A stretch of 33,289 nucleotides of DNA from Chiloscyllium plagiosum. Lineage: Eukaryota. The notes under the pieces were generated by a model. It made no database searches and was not told where the DNA came from. It saw only the letters and a list, made by a program, of their open reading frames with translations. Location: positions 14,117,078 to 14,150,366 of the forward strand of contig NC_057749.1 of NCBI RefSeq assembly GCF_004010195.1. The letters run 5' to 3'. A program made the translations under genes and the position numbers. This document shows positions 471 through 12,290 of this stretch, piece after piece. Each line of letters begins with the position of its first letter. The first letter of the stretch is position 1.

Positions 471-1254
471 TTTATATTTGGTTACAAGATGTGAAAATCA
501 AATGGCTTCAAACTACTTTGTAGTTCCAAGCTCCTCTTGCAGGTTTAAAATTTACTTGTAATTAGTTTAGAGATTTACCATTTTTGTTTTGACTGTTTTC
601 TCAATATCTTTGGCTGAACATCTATAAATGCGCCTTGAGACTACCCCAAAGCTCTTTACTAAACAGAGTACAGTATGAAGCAAAAATTATTTGTAGCACA
701 GGACGCATGACAGCTAAATGTGTCTCCACTCAAGGCAAAAAGGGCATTAAGTGACTAGTTGGATCCTTTGATGGCTAGGCATTCTAGATAACTCCCCTGT
801 TCTTTGAATCATGCCACAGGACAGTTTTATTGGTTTTTGTCGCATCCAAAAAGGCACTTTGCAAAGAGTGGAATTCCCCAGGTTGTATCAGCTTAGATTT
901 CGTACCCATGTTTCTGGGTTGAACTTCAGACTGTGCACTACCAATAGGTTTAATATTCTAGATAGTTCACAGTCCCTGGTTAACTACCTTCTGCATGAAC
1001 CCGATGCATGCTATATTGTCTACCATGAATGCAGTGCTCTTTTCACTGCAAATATAGGTAACAGGCACAAAATGGGTTTGTAAGAAGATAGGGGTGTTGT
1101 TGTAATGTCACTGGATTACTAATCCAGAGGCCCAGGCTAATGGTCTGGAACTACTACTTCTAGTCCTACTATAGCAACTGGTTCATTTGATTAAAACGGG
1201 AATTGAAAACTAGCAATTGTTGTGGCTCTGTTCGCCGAACTGGAAGTTTTTGTT

Positions 1255-1294
1255 GCAAACGTTTCGTCCCCTGTCTAGGTGACATCCTCAGTGC
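1255..1294 (-). ncRNA. Minimal hammerhead ribozyme motif, mirror copy
   Basis: Exact reverse complement of 1450-1489. Confidence 0.65.
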
Positions 1295-1449
1295 TTGGGA
1301 GCCTCCTGTGAAGCGCTTCTGTGGTGTTTCCTCCGGCATTTATAGTGGCCTGTCCCTGCCGCTTCCAGTTGACAACCGGAAGCGGCAGGGACAGGCCACT
1401 ATAAATGCCGGAGGAAACACCACAGAAGCGCTTCACAGGAGGCTCCCAA

Positions 1450-1489
1450 GCACTGAGGATGTCACCTAGACAGGGGACGAAACGTTTGC
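1450..1489 (+). ncRNA. Minimal hammerhead ribozyme motif (PLE type)
   Basis: gca-CUGAGGA-U-[GUCaCCU agac AGGgGAC]-GAAA-CGUU-ugc: core boxes, stem II, palindromic ACGU in place of stem III, and a 3-bp stem I gca/ugc. Confidence 0.65.
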
Positions 1490-2099
1490 AACAAAAACTT
1501 CCAGCTCGGCGAACAGAACCACAGCAACGAGCCCCCGAGCTACAAATCTTCTCACAAACTTTGAACTAGCAATTGTAACTACAAAACCCATCATTGATTA
1601 TCCAAAAAAAAAAAAAATCAGATTCACTAATGGAAGGAATTTGTCAATCTTACCTGGCCCTTCCATGTGACTGCACACACAGCAATGTGGTTGACTCAAC
1701 TGCTGTCTGAAATGGCCTGTCAAAATAATTCAGTTCTAGCACAATTAGGGATTGGTGACAGCTATCCCTTCAAAAGAATTTTCAAGTTGTCCAAGTTATA
1801 ATCACCCCCACAAGTTTTCTCTTTTAGTTTCAGAAAGGATTGATTCTTGCATATCATACAAATAACACTAACAAATGATGAGATAGTTTTATAGTGATAT
1901 TTGTTGAAGATGATCACATTCAAGTGATTGTGAACAATTTAATTGTTATACTTCCCATTCACAAGGGGTCGAAGAACTGTACTAAAATATCCCAAGATCA
2001 GCAGACATTAGAAAACATGAAACAAATAGGTGCATGTGAACTACCTAGCTTGGTGCAGAACAATTTTATAAGTACTGTGTTTGTTCACCTAAATCACAC

Positions 2100-5660: not shown

Positions 5661-6342
5661 NNNNNNNNNNNNNNNNNNNNNNNNNNNNNNNNNNNNNNNN
5701 NNNNNNNNNNNNNNNNNNNNNNNNNNNNNNNNNNNNNNNNNNNNNNNNNNNNNNNNNNNNNNNNNNNNNNNNNNNNNNNNNNNNNNNNNNNNNNNNNNNN
5801 NNNNNNNNNNNNNNNNNNNNNNNNNNNNNNNNNNNNNNNNNNNNNNNNNNNNNNNNNNNNNNNNNNNNNNNNNNNNNNNNNNNNNNNNNNNNNNNNNNNN
5901 NNNNNNNNNNNNNNNNNNNNNNNNNNNNNNNNNNNNNNNNNNNNNNNNNNNNNNNNNNNNNNNNNNNNNNNNNNNNNNNNNNNNNNNNNNNNNNNNNNNN
6001 NNNNNNNNNNNNNNNNNNNNNNNNNNNNNNNNNNNNNNNNNNNNNNNNNNNNNNNNNNNNNNNNNNNNNNNNNNNNNNNNNNNNNNNNNNNNNNNNNNNN
6101 NNNNNNNNNNNNNNNNNNNNNNNNNNNNNNNNNNNNNNNNNNNNNNNNNNNNNNNNNNNNNNNNNNNNNNNNNNNNNNNNNNNNNNNNNNNNNNNNNNNN
6201 NNNNNNNNNNNNNNNNNNNNNNNNNNNNNNNNNNNNNNNNNNNNNNNNNNNNNNNNNNNNNNNNNNNNNNNNNNNNNNNNNNNNNNNNNNNNNNNNNNNN
6301 NNNNNNNNNNNNNNNNNNNNNNNNNNNNNNNNNNNNNNNNNN
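5661..6342. other. Assembly gap (682 N)
   Basis: Run of N. Confidence 1.
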
Positions 6343-10605: not shown

Positions 10606-12290
10606 TCCATAACAGAACACACAGCGCAGTACAGGCCCTTCGGCCCTCAATGTTGCGCTCAATATATCACTCCTCAATTTTAAGCTATGTCCCCTCATGC
10701 TAGCCATCACCATCCAAGGAAAAAGGCTCTCACTGTCCATCCTATCTAACCCTCTGACTATCTTATGTGTCTTTAAGAAGTCACCTCTCAACCTTCCCTC
10801 CAAAGAAATCAGCCAAGTCCCCCACAGCCTTTTCCTCCATACCAGGCAACATCCTGGTAAATCTTCCCTGCATCCTTTCCAATGCTTCCACATTATTCTT
10901 ATAATGTGGTGACCAGAACTGCATGCAATATTGCAAGTGCAGCCGCACCAGAGCTATGTCCAGCTGCAAATGACCTCATGGCTCAAACTCAATCCCTCTA
11001 CCAATAAAACCTAACATACCGTACACCTTCTTAACAACCCTAAAAACCTGGTGGCAACTTTCAGAGATCTATATACATGGACACCAAAATCTCTCTGCTC
11101 ATCCACACAACCAAAGCCTTACCACTAACTCCAGTAACCTGTTACTCCTTCCAGAGCGAATCACCTCACTTTTCCACATTAAATTCCATTTGCCACCTCT
11201 CAACCAAGTTCATCTACATCTCTCCAACCCGCAACATCCTTCGGCACTATCCACCAACCTTAGAGTCATCCGTAAACTTATTACCCCATCCTTTTATGCC
11301 CTCATCCAGATCATTTATAAAAATGAACAGCAGTGTCCAAAAAGAGATCCTTGTGGTACACCACTAGTAATTGAACACCAAGATGAATGTTTCCCATCAA
11401 CCACCACCATCTTCTTTCAGCTAGCCAATTTCTGATCCAAACCACTAAATCACCCTCAATCCCAATGCCTCTATTTTCTGCAATAGCCTACCATGGGGAA
11501 CCTTATCAAATGCCTTACTGAAATCCACATACACCACAATCGCTTTACCCTCATCCACCTGTTTGATCACCTTCTCAAAAGACCTCAATAAGGTTTTGAG
11601 GCACAACCTACCCGTCACAAAACCGTGTTGACTATCCAGAATCAACTTATTCCTTTCTAGATGATTATAAATCCTATCTCTTACGACCTTTTCCAACACT
11701 TTACCCAGAACCGAAGGCTCACTGGTCTATAATTACCAGGGTTATCTCTACTCCCGTTCTCGAACAAGGGGACAACATTTGCTATCCTCCAGTCTTCTGG
11801 CACTATTCCTGTAGACAATGACGACAAAGATCAAACCCAAAACGTTCTGCAATCTCCTCAGATTCCCAGAGAATACTAGGATAAATCCCATCCATTCCAG
11901 GGGACTTATCTATTTTCACACTTTCCAGAATTGCTAACACCACTTCCTTATGAATTACAATCCCGTCTAGTATAATATCTCCGTATTCTCCTCGACATTT
12001 TCTTTCCTGTGTGAATACTGATGAAATTTAGCACCTCTCCTACTTCCTCAGACTCCACGCACAACTTCCCACTACTGTCCTTGACTGGCCCTAATCTTAC
12101 TGTAGTCATTCTTTTATCCCTGACATACCTACAAAGCTTTAGGGTTTTCCTTGATCTTACTTGTCAAAGATTTTTCATGTTCCCTCCTGGCTCCTCTTAG
12201 CTCTCTCTTTTGGTCTTTCCTGGCTAACTTCTAGCTCCCAAACGCCTTCACGTCTCATAAGCCTCTTTCTTCCTCTTGACAAGAGATCCA
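10606..12290 (-). mobile_element. CR1 LINE, 5'-truncated, disrupted ORF2 reverse transcriptase
   Basis: Minus-strand ORF fragments QHGF...VYVDFSKAFDKVPH, LVRLHLQYCMQFWSP and RLRGDF; 3' end with a reversed ggccgaagggcctg tail. Confidence 0.92.

Follow-up and report, generated by a model that had tools for sequence, protein, structure and literature searches.

The analysed window is a stretch of 33,289 nt of the Chiloscyllium plagiosum genome (RefSeq assembly GCF_004010195.1, contig NC_057749.1, positions 14,117,078 to 14,150,366, forward strand), and positions below refer to it unless another locus is named. A tetraspanin gene is located on the minus strand, with its last coding exon at 2784-2692, followed by the 3' UTR and poly(A) sites at 2128/2131 (2128-2784 in all). 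The domain match (PF00335, E 4e-07) scores 30.3 bits, below the cut-off of 32.1; we take the gene to be TSPAN3. Its poly(A) sites are 565 nt away from the tail end of a short insert, and the gene lies outside this insert, which is the subject of our study. Elsewhere in the window, 5661-6342 is an assembly gap of 682 N, and the minus strand of 10784-12163 holds broken frames which presumably resemble a LINE-type reverse transcriptase.

The insert is bracketed by a 13-nt direct repeat on the plus strand (1208-1220 and 1564-1576). Between the two copies, the arms 1221-1371 and 1373-1523 form a 151-bp mirror pair centred on A1372 and disagree at three positions only (1367/1377, 1239/1505, and 1226/1518). 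An earlier note, made from the letters of this DNA, had described such a palindrome with its 13-bp repeats, and comparison of the repeats and arms bears it out; the TATAAAT motifs at 1400-1406 (plus strand) and 1344-1338 (minus strand) and the motif CCGGAAG at 1376-1382 are likewise in place. A whole-window repeat comparison revealed no second copy of the insert elsewhere in the window.

The left arm is an inverted, tail-less copy with the sense of a Penelope-like element (PLE) on the minus strand. Its true end lies 3 nt further out, because TGT or TGC precedes the arm in 18 of the 19 copies sharing the same joint; hence, the duplication and the end of the element overlap in 1218-1220. The inverted arm consequently spans 1218-1371, and its outer end, the last 3 nt of the left target-site duplication (1208-1220), represents the second priming site of the element. 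Also on the minus strand, it carries a TATAAAT at 1338-1344 and, at 1255-1294, a minimal type I hammerhead sequence motif mirroring the one at 1450-1489. Both arms meet in the joint 1368-1376, a GTTG-A-CAAC turn centred on A1372, at a site where joints recur in this PLE family. The forward arm (1370-1563, plus strand) is a 5'-truncated PLE end module with a tail. It comprises the last 32 codons of the PLE ORF, from the C-terminal part of the putative endonuclease region, with the stop at 1467-1469 (1371-1469; CCGGAAG and TATAAAT included), the right-arm hammerhead motif (1450-1489), and the first 35 codons of the ORF (1459-1563). The overhang beyond the symmetric arms, 1527-1563, is the 37-nt PLE tail, bounded by two priming sites (after PMC11167929). 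The right target-site duplication (1564-1576) opens with 3 nt that agree with the parent RNA immediately beyond the tail. AC-rich motifs of the ACAA type hold the joint (1372-1376) and both priming sites (1520-1526 and 1553-1559), which is a possible reason for the favoured turn. A MITE or fold-back DNA transposon was considered and rejected, as the duplications differ in length and sequence and one end bears an unpaired tail.

The parent element and its hammerhead motif

What was inserted here is the end module of a PLE that is abundant in the genome, in the order ORF end, hammerhead, ORF start, and tail. An exact search for the uninterrupted parent motif gave 13,553 matches in the 3.56-Gb assembly, to which all genome-wide pattern counts refer. 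At other loci, the terminal peptide of the arm closes open frames of 200-256 residues, in which a VVY...YIG motif, a CxxC, and two His were seen (locus L032). The GIY-YIG profile PF01541 matches the ORF end with E 0.017 and 15.8 bits, below its cut-off of 22.6, and PF01541 is present in 15-24% of the members of atlas neighbours of the ORF end. Neither a solved-structure search nor PHROGs nor a single-sequence model (pLDDT 38.6, the model being unusable) confirmed the endonuclease. Upstream of the same end module, one of seven proteins scanned (L055) contains the reverse transcriptase domain PF00078 with 30.4 bits at a cut-off of 29.6. Together with the ORF layout, this bears out the PLE origin that had been suggested for the arms; judged by the layout, the element would belong to the Penelope/Poseidon clade.

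The second frame starts from the ATG at 1459, inside hammerhead helix II, and continues beyond the tail in tandem copies such as L032. At 19 loci, ORF end, tail, and ORF start follow each other uninterrupted, as partial tandems in a pseudo-LTR layout. L032 itself is a partial tandem composed of a tailed inverted arm, a 5'-truncated ORF end, and an ORF start with stops, followed by a gap. Long host-like open frames adjoin PLE insertions at L035:1714-2598 and L056:2105-3190. The features of a PLE insertion unit, namely an inverted 5'-truncated neighbour copy, a one-sided tail, and a target duplication, are all present in the window. Inverted 5'-truncated copies, one-sided tails, and palindromic joints have already been published for PLEs (PMC3846280, PMC8557442, PMC2377424). 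The window insert is thus a real and ordinary short PLE insertion, and its head-to-head shape is already known.

The right-arm hammerhead motif is composed of the core 1453-1459, an extra U1460, helix II (1461-1478), GAAA (1479-1482), and the self-complementary ACGU (1482-1485), with the predicted cut after U1486; helix I has 3 bp and helix III lacks a loop. It was assigned by hand reading and by column counts over 59 arms. The core columns are conserved in 54-59 arms, the six helix II pairs in 54-59, and three helix I pairs in 58-59, while a fourth helix I pair is found in none of the 59; covariation is low because the arms are close kin. The cleavage triplet reads GUU in 42 of the 59 arms (position 17 being U in 42 and C in 17). 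Rfam gave no hammerhead match in the window at the gathering score, and none among 17 weak matches in 1000-1800 (E 10); its hairpin-type matches were dismissed as an effect of the palindrome. The predicted monomer fold of 1436-1510 is not a hammerhead (z +0.83). As sequence motifs, the minimal hammerheads of dimer type that the earlier note had read from C1453 and from GUU 1484-1486 are supported by the column counts, and their positions are as claimed. The free ribozyme it envisaged is a different matter: with a helix I of 3 bp, a loopless helix III, and GUU as its site, the motif is unlikely to cut alone. In published experiments, a single minimal PLE hammerhead showed no cleavage and dimers little (PMC4209133), and the motif of a lizard element cut only with protein (PMC11167929). 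The right-arm TATAAAT (1400-1406), a candidate promoter motif by its letters, encodes Thr-Ile-Asn within the ORF end; it is intact in 32 of the 59 arms and changed to TATAAAC or otherwise in 27.

The informative RNA is a single run, X19, a poly(A) single-cell library which cannot show 5' ends. There, 1,172 of 12,955,460 records map to the window, 400 of them with poly(A) at 2128/2131. Reads on the arms represent the whole PLE family and are mostly sense (110 versus 13 at 1449-1509); 42 extend past 1370 into the parent ORF, and no accumulation of read starts or ends was listed in this library type, which is blind to 5' ends. The depth is at most 0.9 in 1571-1753 and drops to 0 in both orientations between 1754 and 2119. 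In this one run, the antisense transcript predicted to enter the TSPAN3 3' end therefore has no reads in 1754-2119. Run X20 has 0 reads on the window. In runs X15 and X16, whose kind is unrecorded, the left flank is joined to the arm. X15 also contains a 920-nt contig (1574-2495) from the 3' UTR of the gene to the right edge of the element, a possible read-through product, with a depth of 147 versus 10.5 on the left flank. No empty-site joint was listed in the four runs, which is not a measure of fixation. A regulation of the neighbouring gene by the insert finds no support.

Recurrence and descent of the joint

The earlier note had proposed a genome search with the junction, and the joint proved not to be unique: a strict joint pattern occurs at 18 loci genome-wide, with different duplications. 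A looser pattern listed 66 turn-bearing joints, compared to 3 for the control. Sorted by eye, these comprise 27 symmetric joints, 6 of a family with a spacer, 5 of a second family, about 17 in which a turn of 4-11 nt is joined elsewhere, and 11 in which the turn abuts the flank. Twenty further turn-bearing loci contributed 3 symmetric joints, 6 with the common spacer, and 11 in which a turn of 5-10 nt is followed by the other arm or by flank elsewhere. At the loci read (21 of 40), all flanks are distinct. From 24 distinct loci examined, L007, L013, and L029 were set aside as lacking the exact joint and L067 and L074 as not being full palindromes, which leaves the 19 same-joint copies used here. 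A target duplication of 13-17 nt with at most one mismatch is present in 17 of the 19 (overlaps with the element end included), and AA follows the tail in 13.

The outer ends of the arms are fixed across the family, and the centres vary. With a three-letter filter, the genome contains 6,775 tail-bearing ends and 2,254 tail-less arms that stop at the second site. Among 28 other loci found by the right arm alone, 16 possess an inverted partner upstream, and 11 of these 16 partners end within 1522-1529; none of the 28 shows the centre of the window copy. Inserts with an inverted partner range from 211 to 1666 nt. Among 62 close two-arm loci, with arms meeting within 34-64 nt, the window joint appears in 7 of the first 50, and most of the others differ. 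The variant at 1226 was tried as a general marker of inverted arms and discarded (0/100 and 1/100 among the arm ends listed).

The pairing strength at the joint, about -2 kcal/mol at the window joint (18 loci), was rejected as a predictor of joint frequency. Other sites of -8.6, -8.0, and -14 kcal/mol gave 2, 1, and 32 loci, respectively, and a site of -6.6 kcal/mol gave 1 locus with a search pattern less tolerant of CpG decay, so that the prediction fits position 1429.5 only. The latter is the centre of a perfect 10-bp palindrome (1425-1434), and at other places in the genome a further 32 symmetric joints are centred on it, in shorter inserts that lack the TATAAAT. This palindrome lies approximately 25-30 nt after the TATAAAT; hence, pairing and start site are confounded there. 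Arms beginning at TGACA number 88, versus 33 and 39 at two other sites, and nearly all of the excess consists of turned ends. A pile-up of arm ends at GAC was dismissed (33 versus 39 at the control site).

The centre base is mixed. For the 27 symmetric copies (the 19 and 8 added ones, among which L093 and L101 may be one locus), it is A in 15, T in 11, and unresolved in 1. Within the 19, A and T occur in a ratio of 6:5 in subfamily A and 4:3 in subfamily B, and both bases occur in each sampled subfamily that has more than three copies. Subfamily differences are present on both arms of the 19 palindromes, and the allele at 1524 is concordant between the arms in 18 of them. The same-joint copies are polyphyletic: for 38 same-joint arms and 21 others, a single clade is rejected (p-AU 0.0024), and one same-joint arm is identical to an ORF-bearing copy over 151 nt. 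L027 combines arms of two subfamilies, and arms with different subfamily marks were also seen at G000 C22:41289763 and C1:119355469; such combinations point to two RNA templates.

Other observations fit an inheritance from few sources. Within subfamily A, the centre base follows the 1524 allele (6:1 versus 0:4, Fisher p 0.015, post hoc), and in subfamily C a change at 1378 occurs on the same arm, with centre T, in 3 of 3 copies. Non-CpG differences held in common fall on the same arm in 6 pairs and on opposite arms in 2; four of the six same-arm pairs stem from one three-locus and one two-locus set, both including the window copy. Of the left-arm differences of the latter, one recurs in L003 and another in L005 and L017, and these sets do not nest. 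In the inner 12 nt, a window chosen post hoc, 8 of 19 loci have private changes on the turned arm, and 0 of 19 have them on its counterpart (p 0.008).

Two small sets of dispersed loci, and probably a third, share a joint together with variants of one arm. Six loci (L076, L078, L084, L085, L094, L095) have in common an 8-nt turn and a 53-nt non-PLE spacer, which a genome search found at these six places only. Their flanks are separate, the left joint is common to five of the six and a one-arm variant to three, the tail is on either side, and two loci show clear separate duplications. L096-L100, located on five chromosomes and belonging to an older subfamily, have an asymmetric joint and inner-arm variants in common, and the shorter arm bears the tail in each of them. 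At L100, both arms carry a tail and the flanks mirror each other, which an assembly effect might explain. A third set would be given by a symmetric joint at parent position 1384, where a one-arm transversion is common to four of five loci on four chromosomes (G000 C1:87398362, C2:135611440, C6:54793820, and C16:29236212). Taken together, these micro-families show that RNA can serve as a template even when it spans an inverted joint. The GTTG-A-CAAC turn running on into the ORF start gave 0 matches genome-wide and is absent from all 19 ORF-continuing copies. N runs are present in 6 of the 11 loci of the spacer and L096-L100 families; ORF-bearing sources may thus be missing, because the assembly is gapped at such hairpins.

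Origin of the palindrome and rival explanations

We consider it likely that the insert is a short insertion product in which two nicks of the target each primed a cDNA and both cDNAs were joined by a turn at TGACA. An active, endonuclease-bearing PLE protein would nick both target strands approximately 10-13 nt apart. Reverse transcription would start from each 3' end within the PLE RNA, at the tail end (1563) for one and at 1526, 37 nt further upstream, for the other. The two cDNAs, both of them antisense copies of the same module, could be joined head to head only. At TGACA, one of them would gain a turn of a few bases, either by fold-back of its 3' end or because the source RNA already crossed a joint. 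The turn would then pair in register with the other cDNA, and fill-in would leave an almost perfectly symmetric insert that is tailed on one side. This complementarity in register would account for both the perfect palindrome and a centre of A or T, with A marking a turn on the tail-side cDNA and T a turn on the other. Changes in the inner 12 nt of the turned arm are what a separate, error-prone copying step would be expected to leave. TATAAAT and hammerhead would be passengers of the duplicated module. The two-cDNA step is borrowed by analogy from the protein of another species: in vitro, a lizard Poseidon protein introduces nicks into the two target strands and extends them, starting at two RNA sites which bound the tail, and hammerhead cleavage is unnecessary (PMC11167929). 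For the window copy, the chance that its joint was made anew may be put at about even, an inherited joint at somewhat less, and any other route would be improbable.

Several rivals address the joint itself. A single cDNA might have folded at TGACA and copied itself up to the second site (after PMC3846280), which would be in line with the frequent short turns at TGACA, the concordance of the arms in subfamily and 1524 allele, and the private changes confined to the turned arm in the inner 12 nt. However, the centre is T in 11 of the 26 resolved copies, where the tail sits on the very arm that self-priming would have made as the copy; chimeric arms as in L027 need two templates, and thousands of arms have the same fixed tail-less end regardless of the centre. 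Self-priming is contradicted for centre-T and chimeric copies and could fit only some centre-A copies, that of the window included; as a general account we regard it as quite improbable. Hardly better placed is a PLE RNA starting at or just before TGACA, with the ETS motif behind it, whose run-off cDNAs would join symmetrically. TGACA is favoured beyond its pairing strength and is the start of 88 arms, but the excess is almost wholly made up of turned ends, none of the 19 ORF-continuing copies starts at TGACA, and the 42 RNA reads continue upstream at 1370, with no start pile listed in a library blind to 5' ends; we think this origin improbable. By far the least probable reading is the working bidirectional promoter-ribozyme unit of the earlier note, which would send antisense RNA into the tetraspanin 3' end. 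Its motifs are intact in both arms, a bidirectional TATA has been suggested for a rotifer pLTR (PMC3846280), and 1571-1753 has a depth of 0.5-0.9 in plus-RNA orientation. Against this, the depth is 0 in both orientations from 1754 to 2119, compared to about 400 on the 3' end of the gene, the insertion is young (3 mismatches in 151) and belongs to a repeat with thousands of copies, and the known promoter of the D. virilis element is internal and TATA-less (PMC2377424).

The remaining rival concerns the source of the RNA. ORF-less palindromes might serve as sources themselves, with the PLE protein binding read-through RNA from across the centre in trans and regenerating the palindrome; they would then make up a small non-autonomous fold-back family. 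Three dispersed sets of 6, 5, and 4 loci with joint and one-arm variants in common argue for it, as does the finding that no turn-bearing copy enters the ORF start. The N runs at 6 of the 11 micro-family loci could, however, hide ORF-bearing sources, the shortest active lizard RNA requires 172 nt of ORF (PMC11167929) where the insert has 105, and the micro-families count 4-6 copies versus more than 13,000 parent matches. We therefore judge this origin of the window insert unlikely. The related proposal for the family, which we put forward tentatively and rate only slightly higher, is that some ORF-less head-to-head PLE stubs, possibly the window copy, act as sources, namely as hammerhead-bearing fold-back mini-elements whose joint is reverse-transcribed in trans, starting at both priming sites; since one RNA may supply each arm, such a joint could pass to newer subfamilies. 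The mobile ORF-less unit of the earlier note thus stands in part: inverted joints do appear to be re-copied within the PLE family, in micro-families with other joints, but the many centres, the rejected single clade (p-AU 0.0024), and the mixed A/T centre base speak against a dedicated unit.

Under the preferred two-cDNA reading, thousands of young copies offer testable marks, namely fixed ends, an A or T centre, chimeric arms, and short turns. The relatives of the insert, whose mirror joints repeatedly fall on one preferred spot and have in some cases been re-copied between places, thereby bear on the origin of PLE inverted repeats and tails, an open question in the literature.

Comparison with known systems

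In LINE-1 twin priming, another cDNA is started on the RNA from the second nick of the target, and short matches join both cDNAs, which copy successive parts of the RNA. Here, in contrast, both cDNAs would copy the same part from two fixed sites, with a palindrome as the proposed result. A search by title and abstract found neither a palindromic non-autonomous PLE nor twin priming of PLEs; most subscription journals and repeat databases lie outside its scope.

Endonuclease-bearing PLEs of the Penelope/Poseidon type (PMC3846280, PMC8557442, PMC2377424) share with our insert the head-to-head inverted copy, a one-sided tail of 30-40 nt, the target duplication, the palindromic inverted joint, and an ORF start within the terminal repeat. 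Unlike the units in the accessible parts of these papers, the arms here measure only 151-194 nt, the palindrome is perfect down to a single central base, this centre is found again at tens of loci, and small dispersed sets have some joints in common. The Poseidon element PAc of Anolis carolinensis (PMC11167929) is similar in that the ATG opens helix II, the cut site follows 26-28 nt later, and two internal, AC-rich priming sites bound the tail, which ends at +105 here and at +111-118 in PAc. Inverted arms and their joint are not treated in the accessible text of that paper, and PAc priming is reported there to proceed without homology, whereas a match of 2-3 nt between target and RNA is common in our copies.

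With the metazoan PLE hammerheads of PMC4209133, the motif shares the extra base after A9, the pair G10.1-C11.1, a long helix II, a short helix I, and a loopless, self-complementary 15.2-16.2. Pairs of PLE hammerheads on opposite strands, 100-700 bp apart, were already noted there. As far as that source's available portion describes them, the differences are a helix I of just 3 bp here and the GUU triplet in 42 of 59 arms. Non-LTR retrozymes (bioRxiv 10.64898/2026.07.22.740005) are likewise ORF-less, hammerhead-bearing, and derived from PLE terminal repeats. They are, in the part of the preprint at hand, head-to-tail tandems with hammerheads on one strand, whereas our insert is arranged head to head with one hammerhead motif per strand. 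If ORF-less palindromes do act as sources, they would be the head-to-head counterpart of the retrozymes.
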